DNA of 64,000 nucleotides. Source: Candidatus Doriopsillibacter californiensis. GTDB taxonomy: Bacteria; Pseudomonadota; Gammaproteobacteria; Tethybacterales; Persebacteraceae. The stretch lies in NCBI GenBank assembly GCA_030386295.1, contig JANQAO010000001.1:135546-199545 (forward strand), given 5' to 3'. This document shows, in pieces, positions 10,053 to 61,922 of this stretch (positions within the stretch are counted from its first letter, which is position 1; each line of letters opens with the position of its first letter). The notes beneath the pieces were generated by a model. It was not told the origin of the DNA, did no database searches, and worked only from the letters and a program-made list of their open reading frames with translations. Both the position numbers and the translations under genes were made by a program.

Positions 10053-10057
10053 AAATA

Positions 10058-10657
10058 TTATTCTGAAAAAACAAAAAAAACTGGTCTATCATGAGACTCT
10101 GCAGGCACACAAGACACTTTCTGACATGAAAACACGGGAGCGCAGGAGAATGTTGAGGAGAGACCAAACATAAATGTATCATAAAAACCGCCACCATAAC
10201 CGAGACGGTAATGTGCGGCGTCTACCGCAACAGCTGGGATAATAGCAAAATCAAAGAGTTGCGATTTTTGTATAACAACTGAATGTGGATAAGGCTCAGC
10301 AATACCCTTGAATCCGATTTGTAATTCGTGTCGGGCGAGTACTTGATGAAACTGCAATTGTCGTTTTCCGGTTACTCGAGGAAAAAAAAGCTGCTTGTTA
10401 TTTTTCCAGCAGTCTGTCAGCAATGGCCATATATTGACCTCTTCTTCCATCGGCGCAAAAGCAGCGATAACGGTAGCTTGTTGAAATGCAGGTAACGCGG
10501 CAATTTGCGAACAAATACGCCGAGAAGCTTTCTCTCGTAAGGGAGTACCCATTTTGTGACGCGTAGCCAATATTCGCTTGCGCAAGACACTTTTTTGTCG
10601 GCTAAGCCGAGATGGATTAGAAGAGGCCGCTAATGTTGCCGTCATCATCCACGTCAA
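10058..10657 (-). CDS. 5-formyltetrahydrofolate cyclo-ligase (MTHFS family)
   Basis: C-terminal GYGGGFYD and E..HDRPV motifs typical of 5-FCL. It overlaps the fhs stop and ends 5 nt upstream of the dnaA start, so the true start may be an internal Met. Confidence 0.7.
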
Positions 10658-12290: not shown

Positions 12291-12429
12291 AAGGTTCCTT
12301 TCTCCTGATACAGACTGCTATTATATTTGAAAGCGTTCCAGAGAGCTTTGTGCTCGCTATGATTTTTGTTAATTGACAATTTATTAGGAATTAGAAGAGG
12401 CCTATTAACAAGTTGCGATATTAATTTTA

Positions 12430-12849
12430 TTAAGGCGTTTTTGAGATGCGCCACGTATGATTGACGGCGGCAGTTTTATTAAGCATGGCCAATGCGGAAC
12501 AATATTTTTCAACACTTAACTGCACCGCGCGAGCGACTGACGCCGGCTTTAAGTGGTCGCCGACTAAGACAAAATGTAAGGAAATACAGGTAAATACATT
12601 GGGAACAGCGTCTGTTCGTTCAGCTTCAATATTAATTTGAAGTGACAGTGGCTCTTGCTGCATTTTTTTGAGAATGTGTACCACATCAAAAGCACTACAA
12701 GCCGCAGCGGCTGATAACATTCCTTCCATCGGGCGCATCCCGCAATTTTTCCCGCCGTGTTCGGGAGGCCCATCAAAAATAATTTGGTTGCCGTTAGTAT
12801 TTGCAACTTCAAAAGCAACGTTTTCTAGCCAACGTAAAGTAAGGTTCAT
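12430..12849 (-). CDS. OsmC/Ohr family peroxiredoxin-like protein
   Basis: 139 aa with OsmC-like organisation and two conserved Cys regions. Confidence 0.75.
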
Positions 12850-13118
12850 TTGGCGGGAGGAACGTAGCCGGATGCGGTTTCCGCACCATCGCCAAAAAAG
12901 TGTCTTTCTGTTTGCTCGGCAAGATATTCGCGGGCGCGGCGGTCGGCCATGTTAAGGCGGTATTCATTGACTAGCATTTTTTGGTGCTCTAACCAATGCC
13001 GCCATGCTTCGGCGGAAACATTGCTAAGCAGGCGTTGTCCGAGTTCGCCCGGATAGGGAGGCGCGACCATTGCTTCAGCTTCTTTTTTTAATTTAATACA
13101 AAAAACGGTTTTGCTCAT
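12846..13118 (-). CDS. yggX: Fe(2+)-trafficking / oxidative-damage protection protein YggX
   Basis: 90 aa with strong resemblance to YggX (..[10 protein letters not shown]....YPGELGQRL...VS.EAW..W...Q.ML.NE..LN..). 4-nt overlaps with both neighbours. Confidence 0.8.
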
Positions 13119-14320
13119 GGGATGATTTTCTCCTGGGATGTTTCATGTGAAACCAATTGTTCGGCAATATGGGCGATTAATGCTTGAGCTGCTTGGGGCT
13201 TGGGTTGGCGCGGTAACGAAATTTCCCCTGCGGAAGAAATAATCAGTAGTTCACTGTCATTTTTGCCTGCATCGCTGAGTGCGTTGGCGGCAATGACGGA
13301 TAATTTTTTTTGCTGTCGTTTTTTGCGGGCGGCTGTGGCGCGGGTGGTGGCATTACCGCTTTGGGCGGCGAAGCCGACGGCAAATAATCGTGGGTATTGT
13401 TCGGTAATAGCGCTGAGGATGTCGGTTGTCGGGTTGAGTTGTAATATTAATACGCCTTCTTTGTGGGCAATTTTCCCTCGTTTGGGCGTAGAGGGACGAA
13501 AGTCCGCCACCGCCGCTACGGAGATGAAGACGTCCGCACGACGGCATTCCTCAATGGCAGCGGCGAGCATTTCTTTGCCGCTTAGTGCGCGTCGCAGAGG
13601 TAACGGTGGTGGTGGTGCGGTAGTTTGTCCAGCAAGAATAACGACCTCCGCGCCTGCCTGGTGGGCGGCTTCGGCAATGCAAAAACCCATGCGCCCACTG
13701 CTCATATTGCTGATAATTCTCATATCATCCAAGTATTCCACCGTGGCTCCGGCGCTGATAACAAAGCGCAGACCGTTCAGAGGTCGAGTTAATCGATTTT
13801 TCAATTGTTGAATAATATTTTCGGGTTCTGACATTCTTCCTTCGCCGTTTTCACCACAGGCTTGTACGCCGCTATTTGGTCCGATGACAGTAACGCCGTC
13901 CGCTAGGAGTTGTTGGATATTGCGCTGAGTAGCCGCGGCCCGCCACATTTGTTGATTCATTGCCGGCGCGACTAGGCGTGGAATGTCTGCGGCTAAAAAA
14001 GTTGAAAGTAAACTGTTATCGGCAATACCAGCGGCGGCTTTAGCTAAAAAATCAGCGCTAGCAGGTGCTATCAGTAGTGCTGTGGCCGAACGAGAAAGAT
14101 GGATATGGTCCATACCATCTGCGGATAGTGGTGCATTCCATTCATCTGTGGCAACGGCCCGCCCGCTTAATGCGCGAAAAGAGGCGGTGCCGACAAAACG
14201 TGTTGCCGCTGGAGTCATAATGACTTGCACTTCATCACCTTGTGCCGTCAGGAGCCGAGTTAATGCCGCCGCTTTGTAGCAGGCAATGCTACCGCAGACG
14301 CCTAAGATTATGGTTCCCAT
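13115..14320 (-). CDS. coaBC: Bifunctional phosphopantothenoylcysteine decarboxylase / phosphopantothenate--cysteine ligase
   Basis: N-terminal flavoprotein domain ([20 protein letters not shown]) plus a C-terminal DFP/CoaB domain. 401 aa. Confidence 0.9.
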
Positions 14321-14814
14321 AATTTAAATTGTAGCATTGCACATCAAGATGACAGAATATAAAAGAGAGAGTAAAATATCGTAGAGAACGAAAAAAGAAG
14401 AGTTCAACCGCTGACGGTGTTGATGGCGCCAATCATTCCGGCTGTAACCGACAGCGAAATAGAATAATTGCTTTTTGCCGCCGCTACTGCTGGCGCACAG
14501 CATGCCGGTTATGTGGTGTTGCGGCGGCCACACGAAGTAAAAATGTCTTTGAAGATGGGCTTCATTAGCATCTACCGCTCCGAGTGCAAAGGGTTATGTC
14601 ACAGGTGCGCGAGATTACAATCCCGAATTTTTTCCCCGCCAAGGGGCGTGGAGTATTGGCAGATCTTATTGCTACACGCTCTACTGCGGCGCGGCATCGC
14701 TATGGGTTGAATTTGCCGCGTCGCCAAGAATTGTGCTGCGATCTGTTTCGTCCACCATCGGGGGACAATTGAGGTTGTTATAAGGAAATTATAAAAGTCA
14801 ATGCCGAATTGCTT

Positions 14815-15861
14815 TTAATTCGGTTGCCGCATCGCCGCTCGTTTGAGACGATCGGTTACGGCTGTCCATTGTGGCGGTGGTGATTCCACCCAGATAATGT
14901 CAGCTTGCATGGCATCTAATTCGCGTAATAGTGCGTACAGCCGGTGTGCATAATCATCAATATTGTCTGTCGCCTGCCGCCACAATGGTTTGGGCACGGC
15001 GTCTGGACGGTGGCGTGACAATGCGGCAATTGTTTTTGCGGGAGGGCGCTGCCAGGCCACATCGGGGGCAAGCAACAGAGGTGTGTTTGGAGCGTAGTGG
15101 CAAGGTAATCCTCCTGGAACTCGTAAAAAGCCAGACGGTGGCAATAATTCACCGTTCGCGGCAGTAGTAATGTCATCAGCGGACAACATGCCGGGACGCA
15201 TGATAGACAAACGTTCATTAAGGCAACTGACGATAGTTGATTCGATTCCCACCGTACAACTGCCACCGTCTAAAATATACAAATCTTCTACAGTGGAAAA
15301 CTCTTCTCGTACATGAGCAGCGGTGGTTGGACTGAGCCGCCCAAAACGGTTGGCGGATGGTGCTGCTACGCCGCCACCAAAAACGGCGAGTAATTGTTGC
15401 GCTTGCGGATGTGCTGGCACACGTAAAGCGACAGTTTTACCACCACCGGTGGTATGTGCTGCCGCTGGACCTGCGGGTAGTAGCAGCGTGAGCGGACCCG
15501 GCATAAAAGCGGCCGCTAATTTTTTTGCTACTTGTGGAATTTCTGCTGCCCACAGCGAAGCTGCGGAAAAGTCTGCTAAATGAATAATTACCGGATGGTT
15601 GCGGGGGCGTTTTTTGAGCGCATACAGTCGTTCCACCGCTTCCGGATTTTGAGCATCTGCGCCCAAGCCGTATACCGTTTCTGTGGCAAAAGCGACAAGC
15701 TTTCCTGCACATAACTGTGCCGCACCTGTTTCAATTTTCGTGCCGATAACGGGCATTTTAGTCGTGCAATTTTTTGGACCAAAAACCCACATCATGTGGA
15801 GCACCAAACTTCCAGCCGGCACCGGACAGTGTGCCGCTGTGGACAAAATCAAACTTTTCAT
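14815..15861 (-). CDS. tsaC: L-threonylcarbamoyladenylate synthase, Sua5-type (YrdC domain plus Sua5 C-terminal domain)
   Basis: ETVYGLGADAQNPEAVERLYALKKRPRNHPVIIHLAD YrdC motif followed by a Sua5 C-terminal domain. The true start is probably the internal Met near 15756, which would remove the overlap with the upstream GNAT gene. Confidence 0.8.
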   Translation of the reverse strand: MKSLILSTAAHCPVPAGSLVLHMMWVFGPKNCTTKMPVIGTKIETGAAQLCAGKLVAFATETVYGLGADAQNPEAVERLYALKKRPRNHPVIIHLADFSAASLWAAEIPQVAKKLAAAFMPGPLTLLLPAGPAAAHTTGGGKTVALRVPAHPQAQQLLAVFGGGVAAPSANRFGRLSPTTAAHVREEFSTVEDLYILDGGSCTVGIESTIVSCLNERLSIMRPGMLSADDITTAANGELLPPSGFLRVPGGLPCHYAPNTPLLLAPDVAWQRPPAKTIAALSRHRPDAVPKPLWRQATDNIDDYAHRLYALLRELDAMQADIIWVESPPPQWTAVTDRLKRAAMRQPN

Positions 15862-16261
15862 GCATTCTCACGCTGGCCGAGTTAGGCAATGCAATGACCG
15901 CTACCGCTAAGCGAACATCGCTTGCTGCCAACGCTTGAAGTAAGCCGCTCAAAAGCTTCCCGCCGATTCCTTCGCCTAGTCGTGTGGCTTGCACGTACGC
16001 ACTTACTTCCACCGTATAACGGAAGGCACATCGAGTGCGCCAGATATCGGCGTAAGCATAACCAACAACGTCATCTCCTTCAGCAGCAGCTAAAAATGGC
16101 GAGACAATATCAGCTTTTTCAATAAGATAAGAAAAATGTGATGGGGGCAAAGGCTTTTCCTGAAACGTGTTGGTGGTGTGCAACACGTAATGTTCATAAA
16201 TTGCAGCACAAGTAGCGGCGTCGGCAGTGATGGCATCGCGTATGATTAAGGTGTGGGACAT
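15758..16261 (-). CDS. GNAT N-acetyltransferase, phosphinothricin / methionine-sulfoximine acetyltransferase (PAT/YwnH) family
   Basis: 167 aa PAT-like fold with an acetyl-CoA binding motif (GEGIGGKLLSGLL). Confidence 0.7.
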   Translation of the reverse strand: MSHTLIIRDAITADAATCAAIYEHYVLHTTNTFQEKPLPPSHFSYLIEKADIVSPFLAAAEGDDVVGYAYADIWRTRCAFRYTVEVSAYVQATRLGEGIGGKLLSGLLQALAASDVRLAVAVIALPNSASVRMHEKFDFVHSGTLSGAGWKFGAPHDVGFWSKKLHD

Positions 16262-34517: not shown

Positions 34518-35453
34518 GTGCGCATATGGCTGATGGACAGCGGTGGTGCTGGTTTTCGCGCACAAACGGCAGGACTTGGCAATGCCATTGCCGCCCGCCA
34601 TCCACAAACGGCAATAACCACAATAACGGTTTCGTCTCGATTGTGGCCGCGGTTGTTTTTATCAGCGTCGTTGCCCGATAAGGATAGACCCGACGTAGTG
34701 ATTGCCTGCGGTCGTGCTGCTGTTGTTCCGGCATTAGCGGCTAAACGCCGACATGGCGCCTTTACTGTGTACATCCAGCGTCCACCGAAGGCTAACGCTT
34801 TTGACGCTGTTGTCTGCGGATTACATGACAATTTAACTGGTGACAATGTGCTGCCGATTATTGGTTCCGTTGGCGGTTTTTGTGCTAATACTCTGGTACA
34901 TCGTCGCCACGCTGCCGAAAAAATATTTGCGGCAGTGCCAGAGCCGCGTACCGCTGTACTTATTGGCGGCAGCAACCGCGCTTTTAATTTTACTCCAGAA
35001 GATTGCCGACAACTGGCGGCAGAAATTAAAGAAACAGCTGGCGACAGCGGGTTGTTGGTGAGTGTTTCCCGTCGTACCGGAAAACAAAACACCGCAATTT
35101 TTGATACGGCTTTTGCTGGTAGCAAGCATTTTTTTTTCAACGGCAACGGTGACAATCCTTATACCGACATGTTGGCCGTTGCCGACCGTTTTGTAGTGAC
35201 CGGTGACTCAGTTAACATGCTTAGTGAAGCTTGCACCGCGGGCAAGCCGACTTATATTTTTCCGCTGCGGAAAAAATTTATATGCGTCACTGCCGCTAAA
35301 TTTCATCGGTTTCATCACCTGCTTATTGATAATGGTTATGCCCGCTTATGGGAAAAACGGTTTGATGAATGGAGTTCGCCCGCATTCAACGAAACTGCGC
35401 GTGCGGCTGACTTTGTTTTGCGCCGCTATCATGAGTGGTGCCAACGCGGATGA
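34518..35453 (+). CDS. ELM1/GtrOC1-family (DUF1022) putative glycosyltransferase
   Basis: 311 aa. The N-terminus RIWLMDSGGAGFRAQTAGLGNAI and overall pattern resemble the bacterial 'mitochondrial fission ELM1' family. This is a recognition-based call. Confidence 0.55.
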   Translation: MRIWLMDSGGAGFRAQTAGLGNAIAARHPQTAITTITVSSRLWPRLFLSASLPDKDRPDVVIACGRAAVVPALAAKRRHGAFTVYIQRPPKANAFDAVVCGLHDNLTGDNVLPIIGSVGGFCANTLVHRRHAAEKIFAAVPEPRTAVLIGGSNRAFNFTPEDCRQLAAEIKETAGDSGLLVSVSRRTGKQNTAIFDTAFAGSKHFFFNGNGDNPYTDMLAVADRFVVTGDSVNMLSEACTAGKPTYIFPLRKKFICVTAAKFHRFHHLLIDNGYARLWEKRFDEWSSPAFNETARAADFVLRRYHEWCQRG

Positions 35454-35468
35454 TATAATTATTTTCAT

Positions 35469-36122
35469 ATGAACGCCGTCGTCAGCGCTATAGATTGGGA
35501 TGTTTTGCAGCAAACTTCGGTGCAAAAATCTCCTTTTCCGCATCTCATTGTTCCAGGTTTTATTGCAGCGGCACAGAAGGATGTGGTTAACCGCGATTTT
35601 CCTGACATTCAATCACCGGGTTCTTTTCCCGCGGCTACGTTGCACTGTGGTGATGCTTTTTCAGGTTTGTTGGAGGAATTACGAGGGGCGCGCTTGGCGA
35701 CTTTAATAGGCGAAAAATTTGGTATGGAACTTGGTGATCGTGAAACCATGATTACTGTGCGTGGTCAGTGTCGTTCCACCGATGGCAAAATTCATCTAGA
35801 TTCAAAAGGCAAGCTTATTACCATATTGATTTATATGAATGGTCCGTGGGAATCCGACGGTGGTCGTTTGCGATTACTCAACGGACCTGATGATATTGAA
35901 GATTATTTTGCAGAGACACCGCCGTCACAAGGAACGATGCTGGCTTTTGCTTGCGCTGATAATGCTTGGCACGGACACAAAAGTTTTTCTGGTCGGCGTC
36001 GTGCCATTCAACTTAACTGGGTGCGGGATGAGCGCTACCTACGCCGCGAACGCCAGCGTCATACTGTTAGTGCCGCACTCAAAAAAGTAAGCCGTTTTTT
36101 TAGGCTGCAAAAAAAGACTTGA
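35469..36122 (+). CDS. 2OG-Fe(II) oxygenase superfamily protein (P4H-like small dioxygenase)
   Basis: HLD...H...R motif set (HLDSKGK ... AWHGHK ... GRRRAIQLNW) on a roughly 217 aa DSBH scaffold. Confidence 0.6.
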   Translation: MNAVVSAIDWDVLQQTSVQKSPFPHLIVPGFIAAAQKDVVNRDFPDIQSPGSFPAATLHCGDAFSGLLEELRGARLATLIGEKFGMELGDRETMITVRGQCRSTDGKIHLDSKGKLITILIYMNGPWESDGGRLRLLNGPDDIEDYFAETPPSQGTMLAFACADNAWHGHKSFSGRRRAIQLNWVRDERYLRRERQRHTVSAALKKVSRFFRLQKKT

Positions 36123-36141
36123 TTCGACTGGTAAAACAATA

Positions 36142-38034
36142 ATGGCATTGCCCATCCAAACGTTTAGCAATCAATCCGGCGGATTTTCTTATTTTAAGGC
36201 GCTTGGTCATCCTTTGGCGGTTACTGGTGGAGCCGCTATTTTGAAAAAAATTCGCACAGCTCGGCGAGCTGCCGTCTATGACCCACTGGGGCAGTTAACG
36301 GCTTTTTCCGCATTGCACGGCTTGCGAACCGATGATTTTACTGATTGTTTCGTCCGTGACACGTTTTTACTTAATGAACAAACGCTGGGGCATGACCATC
36401 GTCCAGTTACCGAGCTTGCGCACGCGGATATAGATGTATTGTTTATGCCGGTTTTTGACGCCGGGTTGCTGTTAGATCAAATCAGCGGGCTGTTGCCTGC
36501 CGGTTGCGTTACGGTGACGCTGGACGAGATGCGCATTCCTGGGCGATTGCTCACCAACAAACGCAATTATTTAGACAAACTTAATTTCGCCACCAATTTT
36601 GCTTTCTTTCGTGATGAAGCGGGTAAACATTCGCGGCTGGTCACCGCCAACTATTGGGGAGGCTATGGTGCAAAAGGTACATTTTTATGGTGTCGCTTGT
36701 TTGCAGGTAGCGGTGACGTGTTGCTGGATTTTGAAGTGCCGCTGCAACACGCTAATCAAACCGTGGTGATTGATAGTCGCCAATTGCGTGCTGAGCATGG
36801 GTTGTCCGATTTTTGTGGACAATTATTTATTTCAGTGGTTAATGGTGCCGGGCACGATATCGTCAAGTATGTAATTGATACGGGCGGCGGCGAAGAAGAA
36901 GTTAGTTGTACGCATGATGCTAACGCTTGGCCGGCGGATTTGTACGCTGGGTTGCCTGCGCCCATGGCGGATGAAAAGGTGTTGCTGTGGGTGCAAAATT
37001 CGCATCCCGTTCCGATTGCTGCAAGTGAAATCGGGTTAAATCTGATGGGTGATAACAATATTGCTTGGCTGGACGAAGAAATTGCTCCCTTTGCTAGCTG
37101 TGCTGTAGACGTGTCATCTTTGCTACCTAACGCGCGCTGGCCACAGCAATTGGAAATTCAAGCTGGCAAGTGGTTTGTGCGTCCACGTTATGAAATTATT
37201 AAAGCGGGTCGGAGTCGTATTAATCATCCCAATGTAGAGCGCAATGACTTGCAGCACGATGAGAACATTCGCCGTTTGACCGCACACTTGGGTAAAGGTT
37301 TTATCTTGCCTGCACCGATTTTGCCGCCAGATGAATTCGTTAGTGAGTGTTTGCCCACGCCGATGTCTACGGCGCAAACCTCTTTGCCTATTATTACCGT
37401 TGCCTATGATGCTGACGGTAATGAAATCGCCCGCGAAGCTTTAGGCAATCTGCCGCGCAATCATACTCGGCAAGTAGATTTAACAGCGCTCGCCGCTAAC
37501 ATCCCCGCTGGTGGTGGTCATGTGGAATTGCAGTACGATTTAGATGCGAATGGAGTGATGGATGGTTGGCTGCATGCATTGTTTCGTTACACGGACAAAC
37601 GTTCTGGTCACGGCGCTGACACTAGTTTTGGCGCACACTTATTCAATCACATCATGACTTTTCGCAGTGAACCGCAGTCTTACAAAGGTCCGCCACCGGG
37701 ACTCAGCACCCGTCTATTTTTGCGCTTGATGCCAGCGCCGGCACGCGTTTTTTGCCATCTAACTTACGCGGTTTGTTCACAATGGCATGCGTATTCCAGC
37801 ACTATACTGGAGCTCAAAAATGCAGCTGGAGAAGATGTATCCCGTACTGCTTTTTCTATTCCTGCCAACGGCTCGCGGTTGTTTTTTGCTGATGAAATGT
37901 TCAATGCTACTGATTTGCAGCAGGCTGGCGACAATGGCTATATTTTGGTGCGTGATAGTACCTGCCGTCTGTTTGGTTATCACGGTGTCCGGCAGAACAG
38001 CGGTTTTGCGCTAGATCATATGTTTGGCTTTTAA
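36142..38034 (+). CDS. Large hypothetical protein (630 aa) with no family I can recognise; no signal peptide or TM segments apparent
   Basis: Long uninterrupted ORF with genome-typical codon usage and tight spacing to its operon neighbours (19 nt upstream, 18 nt downstream). Confidence 0.7.
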   Translation: MALPIQTFSNQSGGFSYFKALGHPLAVTGGAAILKKIRTARRAAVYDPLGQLTAFSALHGLRTDDFTDCFVRDTFLLNEQTLGHDHRPVTELAHADIDVLFMPVFDAGLLLDQISGLLPAGCVTVTLDEMRIPGRLLTNKRNYLDKLNFATNFAFFRDEAGKHSRLVTANYWGGYGAKGTFLWCRLFAGSGDVLLDFEVPLQHANQTVVIDSRQLRAEHGLSDFCGQLFISVVNGAGHDIVKYVIDTGGGEEEVSCTHDANAWPADLYAGLPAPMADEKVLLWVQNSHPVPIAASEIGLNLMGDNNIAWLDEEIAPFASCAVDVSSLLPNARWPQQLEIQAGKWFVRPRYEIIKAGRSRINHPNVERNDLQHDENIRRLTAHLGKGFILPAPILPPDEFVSECLPTPMSTAQTSLPIITVAYDADGNEIAREALGNLPRNHTRQVDLTALAANIPAGGGHVELQYDLDANGVMDGWLHALFRYTDKRSGHGADTSFGAHLFNHIMTFRSEPQSYKGPPPGLSTRLFLRLMPAPARVFCHLTYAVCSQWHAYSSTILELKNAAGEDVSRTAFSIPANGSRLFFADEMFNATDLQQAGDNGYILVRDSTCRLFGYHGVRQNSGFALDHMFGF

Positions 38035-38052
38035 AATTAACAAGAATTTATT

Positions 38053-38580
38053 ATGAATATTACGCTTTCCAAATTTAACGCACTTGCCGCTGCTAAATTA
38101 ACATTGATGGCGGTGATGATGTTTGGTTTTGGTTATGCGATGGTGCCGCTGTATTACAAAATCTGTCAAGTAACGGGCATTAAAAATTTACTTAATCCTG
38201 CCGACACGGATGATATTGCCGTTGATCCCAATCGCCGCTTGCGGGTGGAATTGGACACCAACGCCCGCGGATTGGTGTCAATGAGTCCCAGTGTGCGGCT
38301 AATGGACAGTGTGGAGTCGGGACAAACATACAGTGTTATCTATACGCTTAAAAATCTTAGCAATCGTCGCTTGGTTGGTCAGGCTATTCCATCTTATGCT
38401 CCGGCGCGTGCCGGAGCGTGGTTCAAAAAAATTCAATGTTTTTGTTTTGATCAGCTAACAATGGAGCCCGATGAAGTGCGGGAGGCACCGGTGGTGTTTA
38501 TTATTGATGCTGCCATGCCTGAGGATATCAACACGGTGGCGTTGTCATATACTTTTTTTGAGGTAGAAGGCGCTCAGTGA
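38053..38580 (+). CDS. ctaG: Cytochrome c oxidase assembly copper chaperone Cox11/CtaG
   Basis: N-terminal TM anchor plus the Cu-binding CFCF motif (IQCFCFDQ). 175 aa. Confidence 0.85.
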   Translation: MNITLSKFNALAAAKLTLMAVMMFGFGYAMVPLYYKICQVTGIKNLLNPADTDDIAVDPNRRLRVELDTNARGLVSMSPSVRLMDSVESGQTYSVIYTLKNLSNRRLVGQAIPSYAPARAGAWFKKIQCFCFDQLTMEPDEVREAPVVFIIDAAMPEDINTVALSYTFFEVEGAQ

Positions 38581-38756
38581 AAGCCTTTTTGCTTGCTGCT
38601 AAAACTGTTATTTTCGCTTTTTTTGGGGTTCGCCGCAAAAATGCTGCAGCAACTGATTGGAATACACTTAAGCCGCATCATGTCATTATTGCCGGAATTT
38701 TTATGGCAGCATTATTTATCGCTATTATCTTGACCGTGGTAGATTTAATCGTTTAA
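38577..38756 (+). CDS. DUF2970-like small membrane protein (59 aa, GTG start overlapping the cox11 stop)
   Basis: Translation VKAFLLAAKTVIFAFFGVRRKNAAATDWNTLKPHHVIIAGIFMAALFIAIILTVVDLIV. It is absent from the ORF track (under 60 aa) and resembles small proteins found in oxidase assembly clusters. Confidence 0.5.
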   Translation: MKAFLLAAKTVIFAFFGVRRKNAAATDWNTLKPHHVIIAGIFMAALFIAIILTVVDLIV

Positions 38757-38836
38757 TCTAACGTGAGTGCCTGTTCGCACAACGGTTGCTAAAAATGCAC
38801 AACATTTGAGGGCGGTGTTTTTTAAAGCAAGACAAG

Positions 38837-39907
38837 TTGTGTCACATGAAAAAACAACCGTTCTGTGTTGTTCGTCAGTGCGAGGAGCCGCTTTTTAGCC
38901 TTTTGTATCGGGCACGGGTAAAATACACGATGATGACGCAAGTGCCTTCTGGATCCAATGTCGCTGGTATGCAGACGGATTCGTTTCGCCGCCCATGGTG
39001 GCTGTTTTCCGGTCATATGGAAACCATTGCATCACTTTATGAACGCAATCAAGAGTCATTTGAAAATCGTGTTATTCCAACACCGGAAGGCGATGAAATT
39101 TTACTTAGTTATGTAATGGGCGATGAAAAAATGCCCTTGCTAACTTTGTTTCATGGATTAGAAGGATGTGCGCAAAGTCACACCATACGCCTACTGGCAT
39201 CTTATTTTATCGCTCAAGGGTGGACAGTGGCGGTGCCACATTTTCGTTCTTGTGGCCACATGAATCGATTGCCGCGCGCCTATCACGCCGCCGACGGTGC
39301 CGAGGTGCGCTGGATGTTAAATTGGTGTCGTGCTGCTTTTGTTCGGCCGTACACCTTTGCCGCTGGTGTGTCATTAGGTGGCAATGCGCTGATTCGTTGT
39401 TTGGACTCTACTGATGAAACAGAGTCGTGTTGTGCAGCGGCAACCGTGAGTGCGCCGCTGGACTTAACTGCCGCTGCTTATCATCTCAATAGTGGTTTTC
39501 CGCACCTGCTATATGGGCGGCATTTTTTAAAACTACTACGTGCTAAAGTGCTGGTTAAGGCGGCACGCTACCCGTCAATATGTGATTTAAAAAAGCTGCG
39601 CCGTGCCCGCACTATTGGCGATTTTGATGAACTATACACTGCACCAGTACATGGTTTTTCCAGTGCCCAAGCATACTGGCGGCGAGCATCAGCCTATACT
39701 GCCCTGTTGCGAATGAAAACGCCGTTGTTGTGTATAAACGCGCAAAATGATCCAATGGTACCAGTAGCCTCGCTACCAGTTAAGGCGTCATCAGCGGTTA
39801 GTTTTTGTCGTCCTCGGCACGGTGGACACGGCGCTTTTTTTGGTAAGCCGGCTAATTGGCTGGCCGCTACGATGGGCGATTTTTTCAACCAATATATGAA
39901 TTCTTAA
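38837..39907 (+). CDS. YheT-type alpha/beta hydrolase
   Basis: HGLEG...nucleophile elbow GVSLGGN; abhydrolase family. The start is uncertain (alternative Met at about 38927). Confidence 0.7.
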   Translation: MCHMKKQPFCVVRQCEEPLFSLLYRARVKYTMMTQVPSGSNVAGMQTDSFRRPWWLFSGHMETIASLYERNQESFENRVIPTPEGDEILLSYVMGDEKMPLLTLFHGLEGCAQSHTIRLLASYFIAQGWTVAVPHFRSCGHMNRLPRAYHAADGAEVRWMLNWCRAAFVRPYTFAAGVSLGGNALIRCLDSTDETESCCAAATVSAPLDLTAAAYHLNSGFPHLLYGRHFLKLLRAKVLVKAARYPSICDLKKLRRARTIGDFDELYTAPVHGFSSAQAYWRRASAYTALLRMKTPLLCINAQNDPMVPVASLPVKASSAVSFCRPRHGGHGAFFGKPANWLAATMGDFFNQYMNS

Positions 39908-39940
39908 TCAATTTTAAATTTCAAATACTAGAATAAAACA

Positions 39941-41299
39941 ATGACAATTGCGGCTAATATTTTTAAAGCAAACGATATTCGCGGTATTTATAATGATACG
40001 CTTACTGATGATGCGGCGCGCTCCATTGGTCGTGCTCTCGCCGCCGAGGCCTTGGATGCCGGTGCCACCAGTATGGCATTGGCGCGCGATGGACGATTGT
40101 CTAGCCAGCCGCTGACCGTGGCACTAACGGAAGGACTGTGTGCCGGCGGGGTATCGGTTGTTGATATTGGTATGGCGCCGACGCCGGTATTGTATTTTGC
40201 CGCGCAAACACTGTGTAGTGGGAGTGGCGTGATGGTTACCGGCAGTCATAATCCGCCCGCTCACAATGGCATGAAAATGCTTATTGCTGGGCGTACATTA
40301 AAAGGTGATGGCGTTCAGGAATTGAGGCGACGTATTGAAACAGGAGATTATGGTAGCGCGCCAACAGCAGAGGGACAAAACGTTGATGTATTGGAAAACT
40401 ATATTGCCGCTGTGTGCTGTGCTGTGCCCACTGCACGGGCGCTGCATTTAGTAGTGGATGCCGGTAACGGCGTGGCAGGTGCCTATGCACCGATGCTGTA
40501 TAAAAAACTAGGGCATCAGGTGACGTCGTTATATTGTGATGTGGACGGGAATTTTCCTAATCACCACCCCGACCCTGCGCAGCCAGAAAATCTTATTGCC
40601 GCCCGCAAAAAATTGAATGAAACCGACGCTGATATAGCGATAGTATTTGACGGCGATGGCGATCGTTTGGGCGTGTTACTACCCGGGCGGGAAGACTGGG
40701 TTTTTCCCGATAGGCTATTGATGTTGCTGGCACAAGATATGTTGAGTCGCCACCATGGCGGACGGGTGGTATTTGATGTCAAATGTAGTGCTAATTTAGC
40801 GCCGTGGATTGAACAGCATGGCGGCATTGCCGACATGCAGCCGACGGGGCACGCCTTTATCAAATCGCGTATGAGAGAGACTGGTGCACTGTTGGGCGGT
40901 GAAATGAGCGGGCATTTTTATTTTGCCGAACAATGGTTTGGTTTTGATGATGCGTTACTTGCCGGTGCTCGGTTGGTTGCCATTATTGGCAACAATCCCC
41001 ATGTGATGAGGGACATTCCCTCAAGCGCGGCCTCACCAGAAATTGTGGTGTCCATTGGTGCACGAGACGGCCACGCTTTTGTGCGTGATTTGCGAAACAA
41101 AGTGCACTTTCCCGACATGAAAAAAATAGTAGATATTGACGGGTTGCGGGTGGAATATGCTGATGGCTTTGGCTTGGTGCGGGCTTCCAACACGACCGCT
41201 TCTTTGGTGTTGCGCTTTGAAGGTAACAATGATGAAGCGTTGCAGCGTATTACCAATGATTTTAAAAAATTTCTGGCAGCAGAAGGAATTGTTTTTTAG
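39941..41299 (+). CDS. algC: Phosphomannomutase / phosphoglucomutase
   Basis: Active-site TGSHNPPAHNGMK phospho-Ser loop, DGDGDR metal loop and GEMSGH sugar-binding loop. Confidence 0.9.
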   Translation: MTIAANIFKANDIRGIYNDTLTDDAARSIGRALAAEALDAGATSMALARDGRLSSQPLTVALTEGLCAGGVSVVDIGMAPTPVLYFAAQTLCSGSGVMVTGSHNPPAHNGMKMLIAGRTLKGDGVQELRRRIETGDYGSAPTAEGQNVDVLENYIAAVCCAVPTARALHLVVDAGNGVAGAYAPMLYKKLGHQVTSLYCDVDGNFPNHHPDPAQPENLIAARKKLNETDADIAIVFDGDGDRLGVLLPGREDWVFPDRLLMLLAQDMLSRHHGGRVVFDVKCSANLAPWIEQHGGIADMQPTGHAFIKSRMRETGALLGGEMSGHFYFAEQWFGFDDALLAGARLVAIIGNNPHVMRDIPSSAASPEIVVSIGARDGHAFVRDLRNKVHFPDMKKIVDIDGLRVEYADGFGLVRASNTTASLVLRFEGNNDEALQRITNDFKKFLAAEGIVF

Positions 41300-41384
41300 A
41301 AAAAGATATTCCGATTACAACGCTTGCGAGAATGGTTAAATAAAAAAGATAATTTGCCGCGATAAATAGGAAGCTGGCGGTATG

Positions 41385-41573
41385 TTATTTGGGAAAAAGC
41401 CCAAACTGAGAGGAAACAATAATAAACACGAATAGCAAAACCGACAATCCTACGCGAATAGTGAGCGCCCGCACGGTTTTGTTGCTGCCGCTGCGATCAC
41501 GCAACATATGAAATAAGCCGATAAACAAATTAATAAAAATAAAACACAACAAAAGGATGAAAATAATGCGCAT
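41385..41573 (-). CDS. Twin-transmembrane-helix small protein (DUF2909-like, 62 aa)
   Basis: Two hydrophobic helices separated by RDRSG. This family is commonly found in aa3-oxidase assembly clusters. Confidence 0.45.
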   Translation of the reverse strand: MRIIFILLLCFIFINLFIGLFHMLRDRSGSNKTVRALTIRVGLSVLLFVFIIVSSQFGLFPK

Positions 41574-44000: not shown

Positions 44001-44153
44001 ATTTACAATGGATTAAAAATATTGATAACGATGAATCAGATAAATGTCATTATGAGGTAAATGCTCAATTTTTTAGCTAGATTACGAATAGCGAAAAAGA
44101 GGCCTTTTATGTTCACCCGTAGCAGAGCAAGCAAACGGCTATAATTTATCCTT

Positions 44154-44786
44154 ATGCTAACTTTGGCGATTTCGCGCGGGCGCATTTGGCAGGAAGCACT
44201 GTCGTTGTTGCAGGCACTCGGCTTTTCGCCGAATGAGGAGGCATTGCGTTCGCGGCAGCTAATTATTCCTACCGCATCGGACAATGTTCGTTTGGTGCAG
44301 GTTCGGGCACAGGATGCGCCAGTGTTTGTCGCCCGTGGTGCAGCACAGGCTGGTATTGCTGGCGGTGATGTGTTGGCTGAAAAACCTATGTCAGAAATTG
44401 TTTCGCCACTGGACTTGCGCATTGCCACCTGTCGGTTAGTTATTGCCACGCCACTTGGTTTTGATGAAAATACTGCAGGCAATCGTCCGGCGATGGTGGC
44501 AACAAAGTATCCTAATTTAACAAAAGCGCACTTTGCCGCTCGTGGTCGGCAGGTAAATATTGTCAAATTGCACGGTGCTATGGAATTGGCGCCACTGGTG
44601 GGATTGGCTGATATGTTGGTAGATGTAGCTGACAGTGGTCGGACGTTGCGCGAAAATGGCTTGATAGAAAAAGAAAAAATTATGGATATTTCTGCCATGC
44701 TTATTGTCAATCGTACGGCGACGCGACGTCTTCCTGCTGTGGCTGCATTGCAGCGTGATATGGCGGCACTACTAGAAAAATCATGA
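44154..44786 (+). CDS. hisG: ATP phosphoribosyltransferase, short (HisZ-dependent) form
   Basis: 210 aa lacking the C-terminal regulatory domain; family motifs are present. Confidence 0.9.
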   Translation: MLTLAISRGRIWQEALSLLQALGFSPNEEALRSRQLIIPTASDNVRLVQVRAQDAPVFVARGAAQAGIAGGDVLAEKPMSEIVSPLDLRIATCRLVIATPLGFDENTAGNRPAMVATKYPNLTKAHFAARGRQVNIVKLHGAMELAPLVGLADMLVDVADSGRTLRENGLIEKEKIMDISAMLIVNRTATRRLPAVAALQRDMAALLEKS

Positions 44787-46072
44787 TTCCTCAATTGCGC
44801 ACAAGCGCACCTGATTTCGCTAATTCTTTTGCGGTACTGCGGCGGCAGTTGAATGACGAAGATGTCAGTGCTGTCGTTGCTAATATTATTGAACGAGTGC
44901 GTGCCGACGGCGATAAGGCATTGCTGGAACTGACTGTACAGTACGACCGTGCGCCGCTAGAGTCGGCAAAAAAATTGGTAGTGCCTGCGGAAACATTATC
45001 TCAAGCACATGAGTCGTTGGCGCCAGAACTGCAAGCGGCATTGCGTGCGGCGGCGGAGCGAATTGAAGAATACCACCGGCGGCAGTTGCCTCAGTCATGG
45101 CAGTACACCGATTTCAATGGTAATACGTGTGGAGAACGTATTACGCCGGTAGCGCGGGCAGCGGTGTACGCGCCGGGCGGGCGGGCGGCATATCCATCTT
45201 CGGTGCTGATGGGCGTCATTCCCGCAAAAATTGCTGGTGTGCGTGAGATTACATTATTAACGCCAGTGGCAGATGGTGCGGTACCGCCAATTACGTTAGC
45301 TGCGGCTAAAATTGCTGGTGCGGACAAAGTATTTACTTTGGGTGGCGCTCAGGCAGTGGCTGCCGCTGCGTTGGGTACGGACACAGTCCCGCGTGCTGAT
45401 GTTATCGTCGGCCCCGGCAATGCTTATGTAGCCGAAGCCAAGCGACAATTGTGCGGTATCGTAGGCATTGACTCTTTGGCAGGTCCTTCCGAAGTATTAA
45501 TTGTTTGTGATGACACCGCTAATCCTGAATGGGTGGCTGCGGATATGCTCGCTCAAGCCGAACATGACGAACGAGCGCAATGTATTACCGTCAGTCCCGA
45601 CGCTGCACTGCTAAACCAAGTAGCGGCGGCTCTTGTAAGGCAGTTGGAAACGGCACCACGAGCGGCGATTGCACGTCACTCACTGGTGTCGCGAGGTGCG
45701 CTTATCACGGCGGCGAATATTGGTGAATGCTGCCAATTGGCTAATGATATTGCTGCCGAACATGTACAGGTTATGTGTGCCGATGCGCCGGCAGTGGCGG
45801 CAAATATTCACAACGCTGGTGGCTTATTTATTGGCGCATACTCGTGTGTACCGTTAGGAGATTACGGTGCCGGTCCTAACCATGTGTTACCGACGGCACA
45901 AACGGCGCGGTTTGCGTCACCGCTGGGAGTTCACCACTTCATCAAACGCACGGGTATTTTTCAAGCTACAGCGGCGGGGGCACGTATCCCTGCCGCTGAT
46001 GCCGTCACACTGGCTCGCGCCGAAGGATTATTTGCGCATGCGGAGGCTGCCGCCTTGCGCACGAAAGCGTAA
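44783..46072 (+). CDS. hisD: Histidinol dehydrogenase
   Basis: 429 aa with Zn/NAD motifs and a 4-nt overlap with hisG. Confidence 0.9.
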   Translation: MIPQLRTSAPDFANSFAVLRRQLNDEDVSAVVANIIERVRADGDKALLELTVQYDRAPLESAKKLVVPAETLSQAHESLAPELQAALRAAAERIEEYHRRQLPQSWQYTDFNGNTCGERITPVARAAVYAPGGRAAYPSSVLMGVIPAKIAGVREITLLTPVADGAVPPITLAAAKIAGADKVFTLGGAQAVAAAALGTDTVPRADVIVGPGNAYVAEAKRQLCGIVGIDSLAGPSEVLIVCDDTANPEWVAADMLAQAEHDERAQCITVSPDAALLNQVAAALVRQLETAPRAAIARHSLVSRGALITAANIGECCQLANDIAAEHVQVMCADAPAVAANIHNAGGLFIGAYSCVPLGDYGAGPNHVLPTAQTARFASPLGVHHFIKRTGIFQATAAGARIPAADAVTLARAEGLFAHAEAAALRTKA

Positions 46073-46897: not shown

Positions 46898-47869
46898 TTG
46901 CTTGAGCGGACGATTTTTTCTGTGCGTTTTCTCTTTATCACCGACTCGCTGTCGCGGTTGAAGCCTCAAAAAGACTCCACTGTCGCACTGATGCGGGCTG
47001 CGGCTCGTGCCGGCGATGAGATTTATGCTTGCGAACTTGCCGATTGGAGTCTGCATGACTGCGGTGTGCAGGTAAGCGCTCAAAAGTTGCGAGTCGTTGA
47101 AGAGCACGCTTCTTGGTATACGGTAGAAGAATCTGGCGATTATGCAGCAGACTTTTTTAATCTCGTATTAATGCGCAAAGAACCGCCGGCAGATGCAGCA
47201 TTTATGATGAATACGTTATTGTTGGATGCGGCGATAGCAATGGGAACGCCGGTCGTCAATGCACCGCGAGCGTTGCGTGAATATAACGAAAAACTTTCTA
47301 TTTTTCGTTTTCCGCACCATATTGCTCCCACTATGGTGAGTGCCGACGCCAAGGCACTTGCGGATTTTCATGCCGCGCATGATGGTGCAGTTATTAAACC
47401 GTTGGATGGTATGGGAGGACGAGGAGTGTACGTATCGCCACCACAAGACAAAAATTTTCCTGCTATTGTAGATTTGCTCAGCAGTGACGGACGTGATTTG
47501 ATTATGGCGCAGACTTATCTACCGGCGGCGCGTGAGGGTGATAATCGCGTATTTGTTATTGGTGGCAAACCGGCACCATGGATGTTGGCGCGGTTGCCGC
47601 GAGAAAACGACCATCGTGGCAACATGGCTGCGGGTGGGCTGGCAGAGGCGCGACCGCTTAGTGTTGCGGCACGGCGCATTGCCGAAGATATCGCTCCCAC
47701 GTTGTTGGCAGCGGGTATTATTTTTGCCGGCTTGGACGTGCTTGGCGAGCACTTAACAGAAATTAATATCACTTGCCCTACTGGCTTGCGAGAGGTGCGC
47801 GATCAAACGGGAGATGACCTGGCCGAAGATGTGCTGGATACAGTCCGTGCGGTGTTGGTGCCGGCTTAG
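46898..47869 (+). CDS. gshB: Glutathione synthetase (prokaryotic ATP-grasp type)
   Basis: N-terminal ..FITDSLSRLKPQKDSTVALMRAA and ATP-grasp motifs. The start may be GTG 46922. Confidence 0.85.
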   Translation: MLERTIFSVRFLFITDSLSRLKPQKDSTVALMRAAARAGDEIYACELADWSLHDCGVQVSAQKLRVVEEHASWYTVEESGDYAADFFNLVLMRKEPPADAAFMMNTLLLDAAIAMGTPVVNAPRALREYNEKLSIFRFPHHIAPTMVSADAKALADFHAAHDGAVIKPLDGMGGRGVYVSPPQDKNFPAIVDLLSSDGRDLIMAQTYLPAAREGDNRVFVIGGKPAPWMLARLPRENDHRGNMAAGGLAEARPLSVAARRIAEDIAPTLLAAGIIFAGLDVLGEHLTEINITCPTGLREVRDQTGDDLAEDVLDTVRAVLVPA

Positions 47870-48869: not shown

Positions 48870-49224
48870 GGGGGCGCATTTTGGGCTTTGACGTGAGTTG
48901 CAAAGCAGACGGAGCATGCCAAGCTAAGACGCCTTGTAAAACCGTTTTAAAAAAAAACATAAACGCGAATGACCAGCGTTTCGCTTTAGCCGCTTAATCC
49001 GGCTAAGCCTTCACCCCAGAGGGTTCGCACTCTGGTCAGTGGAGTCATCTTGCGAACTCGCTATTTATTGTGCTGTCTAATAAATAGTTAAACTTTTGAT
49101 GGCTGGCGTTGTGTTCGCTACGTTTAGCGGGCCTGCACAATGCGACAACGAACGCTAAACTAAGCATGTAGCGCCGGTTGTGTAGCCCTTGCGGACGGGG
49201 GTTCGAATCCCCCCGCCTCCACCA
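48870..49224 (+). ncRNA. ssrA: tmRNA (SsrA), about 355 nt; the tag reading frame encodes ANDQRFALAA*
   Basis: 5' GGGGGCGCAUUUUGGGCUUUGACG..GCAUGCC. Resume codon and tag GCGAATGACCAGCGTTTCGCTTTAGCCGCTTAA. The conserved AAACUAAGCAUGUAG motif and the tRNA-like 3' end GGACGGGGGUUCGAAUCCCCCGCCUCCACCA are present. Confidence 0.88.
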
Positions 49225-58319: not shown

Positions 58320-61300
58320 GTGTGGGATTTTTGGATTGACAGAGGCGGTACTTTTACCGATATTGTTGCGCGACGCCCCGACGGCGGTTTGGAAACACGC
58401 AAGTTGTTGTCCGACAATCCGGAACAGTACGAAGATGCCGCCGTAGCCGGAGTGCGTGATTTATTAGGATTGGCAGCCAATGCGTCGTTGCCAGCCAATG
58501 CGGTCAATGTCATCAAAATGGGTACTACGGTTGCTACTAATGCTCTTTTAGAGCGCGTGGGAGCTCGCACTGTTTTATTGATTACCGCAGGTCTTGCAGA
58601 CTTGCCGTATATTGGTGAACAAAATCGCCCACGGTTGTTTGATTTGCATATTTGCCGTCCCAACATTTTGCCTGAGCGAGTAGTTGGCATTTCTGGGCGA
58701 TTGGACGCGGAAGGAGGTATTATCACTCCGCTGGATGAATCGGCAGTGCAGACGGTATTGCAGGCAGCATTTGATAATGGTATTCGCAGCGTGGCAATTG
58801 CTTTTATGCACAGCTATCTCAATCCGGTACACGAGAAGAGGGCAGCGACGATTGCAAAAGAAATTGGTTACACGCAAATATCAATCGGTCACGAGACCAG
58901 CCAGCTTATTAAAATTGTCCCTCGTGCTGATACGGCTGCACTGGACGCTTATCTGACACCGCTCTTGCGTCACTATGTAGATGGTGTAGGACGAATGCTG
59001 GGTGCGTCTTGCGGTGGTCGGTTGTTGTTTATGCGATCTAACGGTGGGCTTGTCGCCGCTAATTTGTTTCAGGGGCGAGATGCGATTCTTTCGGGGCCTG
59101 CCGGCGGTGTGGTGGGTATGGCACGCACTGCCGTTGCGGGAGGGTATGACAATGTTATCGGGTTTGATATGGGCGGCACGTCCACTGATGTTTGCCACTA
59201 TGCTGGAGAATTTGAGCGCAGCAGTGACAGTGAAATTAGTGGTTTGCGGTTACGCACGCCTATGATGCGTATTCATACAGTGGCAGCCGGTGGAGGTTCC
59301 ATATTGCGTTATGAAGACGGACGCTGCCAAGTAGGACCGCAAAGCGCTGGTGCTAATCCTGGTCCTGCCTGCTATCGCCGCGGTGGGCCGCTGACAGTAA
59401 CTGATTGCAATGTCATGTTGGGACGTATTCAGCCGACACATTTTCCTCGTGTTTTTGGTAAGAACGGAGATAAATTATTAGATGCGGCAGTAGTTAAAAA
59501 ACAATTTATTGCCTTGGCACAGACCGTTGCCGAAGAGTCTGGCAACTCTCCCTTGTCACCTGAAGAAACGGCGGTTGGATTTCTTCGCATTGCCATAGAA
59601 AACATGGCCAATGCCATTAAAAAAATTTCAGTGCAGCGCGGTTATGATATTACGTCGTATGTACTTAACAGTTTTGGCGGAGCCGGAGGCCAACACGCTT
59701 GCCAGGTTGCCGATGCGTTGGGAATGAAAACAGTTTTTACACACCCTTTCGCTGGTGTTTTATCGGCTTATGGAATGGGGCTTGCCGATATTCGCGCGCT
59801 ACGGGAACGACAATTTGAGTGCTTGGTAGATGCTGTTGTTGAAGCGGATGCAGCGCTGGCGGATATGGTAGAGGGGGCGGTGGCGGAAGTCATTGGTCAA
59901 GGCGTCGCCGAAGCTGGTATTGATATCGTCAAGCGTGTTCGCCTGCGTTACGAGGGGTCACACCAGACGTTGACTGTTCCCTTTGGCACTGCAGAAAAAA
60001 TGCGGGTAGATTTTTCAGCAACTCATAAAGTTCGATATGGATTTGTTGCTGACGAACGGGCGCTTGTTATGGAAGCGCTAGAAGTGGAGGTAATTGGTCG
60101 CAACACACTGCCGCCTGAAAATGTCTGTGAGTCGGTAACAACATTGCCAATTCCGACCGATACAGTGCGCGCTTATATTGATGGCGAATGGCGGCAGACG
60201 CCCCTGTATCGCCGAGGTGATTTGCTGTCTGGACAATCATTAGAGGGGCTTGCCATTATTAGCGAAGAGACGGCTACCACCGTGGTAGAAGACGGCTGGC
60301 AGGCGCATGTTAATTCCTACGGACATTTGATTCTTCAGCGCATTCGGATGCGTGCCAAAGAAAATATTGCTGGTGGGTGTCCTGACCCAGTTATGTTGGA
60401 AGTGTTTAATAATTTATTTATGTCTATTGCCGAACAGATGGGCTGGACATTAGCCGATACCGCGTATTCGGTCAACATTAAAGAGCGGTTGGATTTTTCG
60501 TGTGCATTATTTGACGCTGGCGGTGGACTAGTTGCCAATGCTCCGCATGTGCCGGTACATTTGGGTTCTATGGGCGAGTCGGTGCGTACCGTCATTCGCC
60601 AATGTGGTGACACTATGCAGCCGGGTGATTCGTTTATGCTCAACTCGCCCTTTGATGGTGGCACTCATCTTCCCGACATTACCGTTGTCTCGCCGATTTT
60701 TGATGATACTGGTGTGCATATTCGCTTTTTTGTCGGATCGCGTGGTCACCATGCTGACATCGGCGGACGAACTCCCGGCTCAGCTCCGCCCGACAGCCGT
60801 CACATTCAAGAAGAAGGAGTGCTTATTAGATGTTTCAAAATGGTGAGTGGTGGGAAATTGCGTGAAAAAGCCATTCGTGCTTTATTAGCTGTCGGACCCT
60901 ACCCTTGCCGTAATATTGCACAAAATATTGCTGACTTGCAGGCGCAACTGGCGGCCAACGAAACTGGCATCCGCGAAACTCAAAAAATGCTTGCACAATT
61001 TGGGTGGGAGGTAGTGCGCGCATACATGACACATGTGCAGGACAACGCTGAAGAATCCGTGCGCCGTGTTATCAAAAACCTAAATGGAGGAACTTATGTT
61101 TATCCGCTGGATAGTGGCGCGAAAATTTTGGTACGTGTTGACATAGACCGTGCAGCACGCACGGCGTGCATAGATTTTTCTGGTACTTCATTGCAGAATT
61201 CCGGTAACTACAACGTGCCGTCGGCGGTGTGCCGTGCGGCAGTATTGTATGTATTGCGTACACTTGCTGGTGCCGACATCCCGCTCAACGAAGGCTGTCT

Positions 61301-61922
61301 TAATCCTGTTAGCATCATCACGCCGGCAGGTAGTATGCTTAATCCAGACTATCCAGCGGCGGTTATCGCCGGCAATACCGAAGTTAGTCAGGCGATTGCC
61401 AACTGTCTGTTGGCGGCGGTGGGAGCACAAGCTAATTCGCAGGGAACAATGAATAATTTTGCGTGGGGAGATGAAACATTGCAAAATTACGAAACCATCG
61501 GTGGTGGCACTGGTGCTGGCCCGGACTTTGACGGTGCCAGTGCGGTGCAATCACATATGACTAATACTCGCATGACTGACCCAGAAGTATTGGAAAGGCG
61601 TTTTCCGGTGCGATTGGAAGAAATGTCTATTCGCACCGGTTCTGGCGGGTGTGGAAAATATAAAGGTGGTTGCGGCACAGTGCGGCGGTTGCGTTTTTTG
61701 CGACCAATGACAGTAACCGTATTGACATCACACCGCCGTACGCCGCCCTTGGGTATGGTTGGTGGCGGTAATGGTATGACAGGAGAAAATAGTGTGTGCA
61801 AAGCGGACGGTACGATGGTTTACTTGCGTGGTAATGATGAATGCCAAATGGAGGCGGGGGATGTTTTTGTCATGAAAACGCCGGGCGGTGGCGGGTGGGG
61901 AAAAACCAGTAATGCCGATTAG
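58320..61922 (+). CDS. 5-oxoprolinase (ATP-hydrolysing), fused hydantoinase A/B (HyuA-HyuB) type, 1200 aa
   Basis: N-terminus [14 protein letters not shown] and hydantoinase_A and _B regions in one polypeptide. Confidence 0.85.

Follow-up and report, generated by a model that had tools for sequence, protein, structure and literature searches.

A tightly packed run of genes at positions 34518-41573 of a 64,000-nucleotide stretch of DNA (the window, 64 kb in full) from Candidatus Doriopsillibacter californiensis, which lives as a symbiont on the skin of the nudibranch Doriopsilla fulva (PMC10262491), raises the question of which of its members belong together and what they do. The run begins with genes for a putative ELM1/KdoT-family glycosyltransferase, a small Fe(II)/2-oxoglutarate (2OG) oxygenase, and a 630-aa protein, which we name X630 here, and it continues with genes for a Cox11 copper chaperone, a hydrolase, a phosphomannomutase/phosphoglucomutase (PMM), and two miniproteins; all eight open reading frames (ORFs) and their domains were confirmed by the ORF list, Pfam, and NCBIfam. 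The original prediction had read this run as a possible protein- or cofactor-modification module in which hydroxylation precedes glycosylation and the 630-aa protein is the substrate or scaffold. Our analysis narrows the conserved unit to the first three genes (34518-38034), which occur as a unit in Alpha-, Beta-, and Gammaproteobacteria, and we put the probability that this trio is a module for modification of the lipopolysaccharide (LPS) inner core, related to 3-deoxy-D-manno-octulosonic acid (Kdo), at roughly one half.

The extent of the unit was read from gene neighborhoods. All ORFs of 83 related loci were translated and searched with 14 window proteins; 80 of the 83 are species loci, and 61 of these have enough flanking sequence. 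The ELM1 gene adjoins the X630 gene in 72 of the 80 (58 of the 61), and the oxygenase gene does so in 54 (41 of the 61). Gene order varies, being ELM1-2OG-X630 in 34 loci, ELM1-X630 in 22, 2OG-X630-ELM1 and 2OG-ELM1-X630 in 7 each, and with a divergent ELM1 gene in 2, and the flanks differ by lineage, with complex I genes, riboflavin genes, tra genes, or a carAB-greA block next to the trio. Moreover, one locus (L002, 4059-6683, protein P0116) encodes an in-frame fusion of 874 aa, in which a complete oxygenase is joined through a 25-aa linker to a complete X630. Adjacency in several orders and between unrelated flanks, together with this fusion, strongly supports the proposal of a functional link among the glycosyltransferase, the oxygenase, and the 630-aa protein, and the co-occurrence that was suggested for inspection, that of the 630-aa protein with ELM1 and 2OG genes, was indeed found across the 80 species loci. 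Because the ELM1 and oxygenase genes travel with X630 in this survey and the remaining window genes do not, we regard the trio as the conserved unit; it is claimed by no textbook pathway, as had been anticipated for the operon.

Several loci depart from these arrangements. The locus L042 has a similar long ORF with a frameshifted oxygenase part, possibly an assembly error. In two Azospirillum loci (L065 and L082), neither an ELM1 nor an oxygenase gene lies within 10 kb of the solitary X630 gene, and the module is therefore split in this genus. On a Ca. Porifericomitaceae chromosome (L085), the trio lies in a cluster with further glycosyltransferase (GT) genes, a sugar-phosphate nucleotidyltransferase gene, and a gene for phosphoglucose isomerase (PGI), and this cluster adjoins the F-type conjugation genes traG, traH, traF, and traN (10244-15896, minus strand), which hints that the region may be mobile there.

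What kind of protein is X630? The gene (36142-38034, plus strand) encodes a cytoplasmic protein of 630 aa that gave zero matches in Pfam and NCBIfam, and it had been taken for an orphan. A word-indexed search returned 4,274 homologous clusters, the best 120 of which are all full length, 52 to 73% identical, and nearly all unnamed or called hypothetical, and when each species was represented by a single genome, at least 598 species proved to encode the protein. Most carriers belong to the Alphaproteobacteria (Azospirillum, Nitrospirillum, Pelagibius, Thalassobaculum, Kiloniellaceae, and others), joined by Betaproteobacteria (Sulfuriferula, Methylophilaceae, and Thiobacillus) and Gammaproteobacteria (Competibacteraceae and sponge symbionts). 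An alignment of 42 sequences has a mean column identity of 59% and about 130 invariant positions rich in His, Asp, Cys, Arg, and Trp; conserved stretches include SCTHDANAWP, QNSHP, HPNVER, TSFGAHxFNH, and a C-terminal DHMFGF. Between classes, X630 (51 to 54% identity) is more conserved than the oxygenase (47 to 54%) and the ELM1 protein (33 to 36%). Since so many of the roughly 130 invariant positions are His, Asp, Cys, or Arg, and since identity across classes reaches 51 to 54%, X630 looks like an enzyme, which does not support a part as a passive scaffold or substrate. With 4,274 clusters of homologues, it is not an orphan either.

X630 could not be placed in any described protein family by Pfam, NCBIfam, PDB sequence, or PDB fold comparison. 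No model for it exists in Pfam (2025 copy) or NCBIfam (2026), Pfam scans of divergent or longer members were empty, and its profile matched nothing among PDB sequences at an E value of ≤10. A profile search of 1.84 billion representatives recovered about 20 full-length clusters at 50% identity, mostly fragments otherwise, and neither distant paralogues nor informative fusions. AF2 models the protein with high confidence (pLDDT, 91.8; pTM, 0.91), predicting an N-terminal Rossmann-like alpha/beta domain at about residues 1 to 130 and beta-sandwich regions at about 150 to 370 and 385 to 630, and a Foldseek comparison of this model with the PDB gave only spurious multi-beta-sandwich matches (TM score, about 0.1). 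No account of X630 or of the trio turned up in the searchable literature, including that on bacterial ELM1, GtrOC1, PasI, and 9BLQ. We take X630 to represent a probable enzyme family that has not been described, in what may be a context of KdoT-type LPS-core assembly.

One pointer to such a context is the glycosyltransferase (34518-35453, plus strand, with two candidate starts, GTG at 34518 or ATG at 34533), a GT-B-type protein that matches PF06258 (Mito_fiss_Elm1) with an E value of 1.2e-76 and 258 bits (cutoff, 27) over the entire profile (positions 1 to 304 of 304). It has an SRRT motif (S184-R185-R186-T187), which is kept in 74 of 75 X630-linked ELM1 homologues, and its D7, H103-D104, and SRRT 184 to 187 are collinear with D8, H109-D110, and S178-T181 of KdoT in the published residue numbering. 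From its locus position, we take A1S_2903, the gene for KdoT, to be the one called gtrOC1. In bacteria, the ELM1 family had for a long time gone without annotation. KdoT is the only characterized bacterial member of PF06258 and is ELM1-like; it is an inverting GT-B enzyme that was shown in vitro to transfer a third Kdo from CMP-Kdo onto Kdo2-lipid IVA, after which the GT4 enzyme GnaT/LpsB adds N-acetylglucosaminuronic acid (GlcNAcA) from UDP-GlcNAcA in the split inner-core Kdo pathway of Acinetobacter baumannii, and a Rickettsia homologue complements the mutant (PMC10936431, PMC12856342). The invariant SRRT, R180 especially, is needed for KdoT activity (PMC12856342). The window protein thus resembles KdoT of A. 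baumannii in family, in length (about 300 aa), and in the equivalent position of the donor-binding SRRT motif, a likeness drawn from family, motif, and published residue positions. The published Acinetobacter core locus lists neither a 2OG oxygenase nor an X630-like gene (PMC10936431, PMC12856342), in which it differs from the trio. The alphaproteobacterial ELM1 gene is part of a carAB-greA block, and ELM1 adjoins carB in SAR11 genomes as well (PMC12816887); this common placement suggests that ELM1 is an old housekeeping gene and that the oxygenase and X630 joined it later.

The second member of the trio (35469-36122, plus strand; 217 aa; PF13640, 2OG-FeII_Oxy_3), in some sources called SM-20-related, has the double-stranded beta-helix core of its class with H109-x-D111, H168/H170, and R177, so that both the HxD...H triad and the 2OG-binding Arg are present, and these are invariant among its homologues. 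A long basic C-terminal helix (residues 188 to 216) could bind the membrane or X630. In sequence, the protein is 100% identical to one listed at NCBI for 'Candidatus Persebacteraceae bacterium Df01', which is Ca. Doriopsillibacter californiensis. The structures closest to the model are PasI and PolD, followed by OGFOD1/Tpa1 (~17), PPHD (15.5), and PHDs (~15), and in a comparison with PDB sequences, too, the best match is PolD (E value, 2e-9). PPHD, the EF-Tu hydroxylase, therefore ranks behind PolD and PasI as a structural match. As one of the 2OG enzymes of the polyoxin pathway, PolD acts on octosyl acid, a nucleoside whose sugar is an eight-carbon acid (PMC5365060, PMC12614342). Kdo, which is carried on CMP, is likewise an eight-carbon sugar acid. 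PolD and PasI share with the window oxygenase a small size and a fold like that of prolyl 4-hydroxylases (P4H), at only 16 to 22% identity, and PolD, unlike the trio oxygenase, belongs to a Streptomyces antibiotic gene cluster; for PasI, a literature search found no function or substrate.

An oxygenase acting on inner-core Kdo has a precedent in another sequence family. Reportedly, in work by Chung and Raetz from 2011, KdoO is an Fe(II)/2OG-dependent Kdo 3-hydroxylase that in Burkholderia and Yersinia turns the outer Kdo of Kdo2-lipid A into D-glycero-D-talo-octulosonic acid (Ko). We rejected membership of the trio oxygenase in the KdoO family, as it is of the PF13640 P4H type and gave no Kdo_hydroxy match, and KdoO is therefore only a functional analogy, if a plausible one, being likewise an O2- and 2OG-dependent oxygenase in an inner-core Kdo context. 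KdoO works alone, whereas the trio oxygenase is coupled to a 630-aa partner, to which it is fused in one contig.

The neighbors of the trio outside the Alphaproteobacteria point in the same direction as KdoT. In seven loci that are beta- or gammaproteobacterial or unclassified (L005, L007, L041, L048, L053, L057, and L083), a gene for a family 4 glycosyltransferase (GT4) abuts or overlaps the X630 stop codon, and at least three non-orthologous GT4 types are found among the seven. Five of them have a heptosyltransferase of family GT9, an O-antigen ligase, or a UDP-GlcNAc 6-dehydrogenase nearby: L041, L048, L057, and L083 carry GT9 genes, L048 has in addition a gene for a Wzy_C O-antigen ligase, and L005 and L083 encode a TviB-like UDP-GlcNAc 6-dehydrogenase, an enzyme type that produces UDP-GlcNAcA. 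The GT4 gene after X630 mirrors the Acinetobacter order of KdoT and then GnaT, and in several loci it stands beside the module together with the UDP-GlcNAc 6-dehydrogenase gene, matching the KdoT-then-GnaT step. In L005, a 2-Mb gammaproteobacterial metagenome-assembled genome, a gene for an ankyrin-repeat protein (14298-14933, plus strand) follows the GT4 and UDP-GlcNAc dehydrogenase genes; proteins of this kind are often found in host-associated bacteria.

In Alphaproteobacteria, the setting is of another kind. About 45 alphaproteobacterial loci have, downstream of X630, a highly conserved LysR-type orthologue (phmmer E values between loci, 1e-103 to 1e-171), which in NCBIfam is most similar to GcvA/YafC but scores below the cutoffs of these models, and an Lrp-type regulator is encoded upstream of ELM1; examples of these regulators are found at 5373-5867 (minus strand) and 9978-10889 (plus strand) in L003 and at 3719-4621 (plus strand) in L066. 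The single-linkage clustering of flanking ORFs was noisy, as spurious high-GC ORFs were chained, and it still showed the LysR, Lrp, and carB synteny. Such regulators invite the view that the trio belongs to a regulated small-molecule pathway or a non-LPS glycoconjugate pathway (its product being, for instance, a modified nucleotide sugar, a glycolipid, or an osmolyte), in which X630 and the oxygenase would make or tailor a metabolite that the ELM1-like enzyme glycosylates or transfers. That PolD, one of the two closest oxygenase structures, is a natural-product enzyme would fit as well. The regulators may, however, reflect inherited synteny in the alphaproteobacterial lineages sampled, neither a transporter nor further biosynthetic genes are consistently linked to the trio, and the neighbors that are not inherited are, where present, LPS-core genes. 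We consider this pathway an alternative, albeit a rather doubtful one.

Our preferred reading thus remains modification of the LPS inner core, and its substrate and chemistry are extrapolated from family membership, motif conservation, and gene linkage, which are the observations. The trio would act at the cytoplasmic face of the inner membrane, where the LPS inner core is assembled. The ELM1/KdoT-like enzyme would transfer Kdo or a Kdo-derived ulosonic acid, and the oxygenase, together with X630 as a catalytic or substrate-binding partner, would oxidatively modify the eight-carbon sugar acid, either by a Ko-type hydroxylation or by a PolD-type oxidative tailoring step, with the activated donor or the lipid-linked core as the target. 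A more specific version can be offered tentatively, as a possibility that we hold with less confidence: X630 may found a new enzyme family that, with a PolD-like oxygenase, carries out a previously unknown oxidation of inner-core Kdo in the LPS of hundreds of proteobacterial species, the product being installed by the KdoT-type transferase. This oxidation might be a KdoO-independent route to Ko or might yield, from Kdo, a ulosonic acid that is shorter or dicarboxylic.

Several observations weigh against the inner-core reading. The association with LPS-core genes is present in the seven non-alphaproteobacterial loci and absent from this window and from most alphaproteobacterial loci, and the LysR gene downstream and the Lrp gene upstream that stand there instead may be more typical of a regulated metabolic pathway, or may be inherited synteny. 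In 22 of the 80 species loci, ELM1 and X630 are kept with no oxygenase gene within 10 kb. The fusion of the oxygenase and X630 comes from a single contig and could reflect a lost stop codon. In addition, the oxygenase has no Kdo_hydroxy match in Pfam or NCBIfam at an E value of ≤0.01, and the PDB fold search of the X630 model revealed no recognizable catalytic fold.

The same evidence bears on protein hydroxylation followed by glycosylation, the logic favored by the original prediction, in which the oxygenase would hydroxylate Pro or Lys of a protein (X630 itself, a translation factor, or a ribosomal protein) and the ELM1-like enzyme would then glycosylate it. The PF13640 assignment of the oxygenase, together with the SM-20-related name, would suit such a role, as would the very high conservation of X630, which fits contact with a conserved macromolecule, and the retention of the module in small symbiont genomes. 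The best oxygenase structures include the small-molecule enzyme PolD, though, and the sole characterized ELM1-family enzyme works on lipid A-core; the seven GT4 loci neighbor LPS or polysaccharide genes and never translation genes, and X630 is rich in invariant polar residues that look catalytic. Moreover, since 22 loci have ELM1-X630 without the oxygenase, hydroxylation is not an obligatory first step. The known systems of this kind, Skp1 with PhyA/Gnt1 and collagen with LH3, use glycosyltransferases of families other than ELM1, and, in contrast to these, the trio has no evident target protein, sits in LPS-related contexts, and can dispense with its oxygenase. Beyond the fold class of the oxygenase, we found no support for this logic, and we judge it unlikely.

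We return to the genes that follow the trio, which had been counted into one seven-gene module. Cox11/CtaG (38053-38580, plus strand; Pfam E value, 2e-38; NCBIfam PRK05089 above cutoff) has an N-terminal transmembrane helix and an intact CFCF motif, and the DUF2970 miniprotein gene (38577-38756, plus strand; Pfam E value, 1.4e-15) overlaps its stop codon by 4 nt. Next come the gene for a YheT-like alpha/beta hydrolase (38837-39907, plus strand; NCBIfam PRK10985, E value of 1e-55, below cutoff, over ORF residues 58 to 355) and that for the AlgC/PgmG-like PMM (39941-41299, plus strand), which has four PGM_PMM domains and falls below the NCBIfam equivalog cutoffs. The last gene, convergent with that for PMM, encodes the DUF2909 twin-transmembrane-helix miniprotein (41385-41573, minus strand; Pfam E value, 1.4e-19; NCBIfam twin_helix above cutoff). 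Spacers of 15 to 35 nt or overlaps had been described throughout the run, and this holds for most junctions (ELM1/oxygenase, 15 nt; oxygenase/X630, 19 nt; X630/Cox11, 18 nt; hydrolase/PMM, 33 nt; and the Cox11/DUF2970 overlap). It does not hold before the hydrolase gene, where the ORF bounds leave a gap of at least 80 nt, and probably about 170 to 210 nt, as the hydrolase family is matched from ORF residue 58 onward and the earliest ATGs lie at about 38927 to 38969, which is probably where the true start is. A consensus scan found no standout promoter-like or terminator-like site in the intergenic spacers, with counts equal to shuffle expectation, so that it neither supports nor counters co-transcription, and Rfam and tRNA scans of the region gave zero matches.

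It is this packing that would argue for the entire run, Cox11, DUF2970, and DUF2909 included, as one unit, for example for copper or oxidase cofactor modification, given that X630 and Cox11 are 18 nt apart and that Cox11 overlaps DUF2970. In its favor, too, the closest relative (L004, 68% identity) likewise has Cox11 after X630, and oxidase subunit genes are absent from the window. That locus is, however, the only other one of the 83 with Cox11 next to X630, and in Ca. Persebacter, of the same family, the order is 2OG-X630-ELM1 with Cox11 not nearby. The DUF2970, hydrolase, and DUF2909 genes recur in none of the 83 loci, and PMM recurs solely in L004, on the other strand and at a distance of about 9.5 kb. 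The long spacer ahead of the hydrolase gene likewise speaks against a single unit, and close packing is what one would expect of a reduced symbiont genome. The neighborhood survey thus largely refutes a Cox11-centered module, and the seven-gene reading is very improbable. We conclude that Cox11 with DUF2970, the hydrolase, PMM, and DUF2909 are housekeeping neighbors packed tightly in a small symbiont genome, Cox11 being a lineage-specific one, and that DUF2970 is partnered with Cox11, not with the trio. Genes for oxidase subunits of the coxA, coxB, or coxC type were found nowhere among the annotated ORFs of the window, so that Cox11 is not part of an aa3 oxidase operon there; the absence of aa3 oxidase genes, noted earlier, stands within the scope of this window.

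The wider setting is that of a chromosome core. The window carries the housekeeping genes dnaA-dnaN-gyrB, polA, hisGD, gshB, and dsbD, and it probably spans the chromosomal replication origin, since gyrB, dnaN, and dnaA are consecutive at 4903-10052 (minus strand) and the GC skew is negative from 2 to 8 kb and positive from 8 kb onward. The hisG gene (44154-44786, plus strand) leads into hisD, and an antisense ORF of 252 aa that overlaps it (44036-44794, minus strand) has no family match and was dismissed as spurious. A transfer-messenger RNA (tmRNA) gene lies at 48870-49224 (plus strand), with the tag peptide ANDQRFALAA, and a fused hydantoinase A/B of the 5-oxoprolinase type (1,200 aa) is encoded at 58320-61922 (plus strand), near gshB (46898-47869).

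Should the inner-core reading be wrong, the trio would still be a well-defined and widespread gene module whose knockout is feasible in cultivable carriers. If it is right, the X630 family, present in at least 598 species and lacking a Pfam model, a solved relative, and a name, would gain a pathway context, and the recently discovered KdoT branch of inner-core assembly, so far described for Acinetobacter and Rickettsia, would be widened to many Alpha-, Beta-, and Gammaproteobacteria. One would then predict a modification of the core that depends on oxygen and differs from that of KdoO. Inner-core chemistry influences outer-membrane integrity and host recognition, and both are relevant to the sponge and nudibranch symbionts, whose reduced genomes keep the module.

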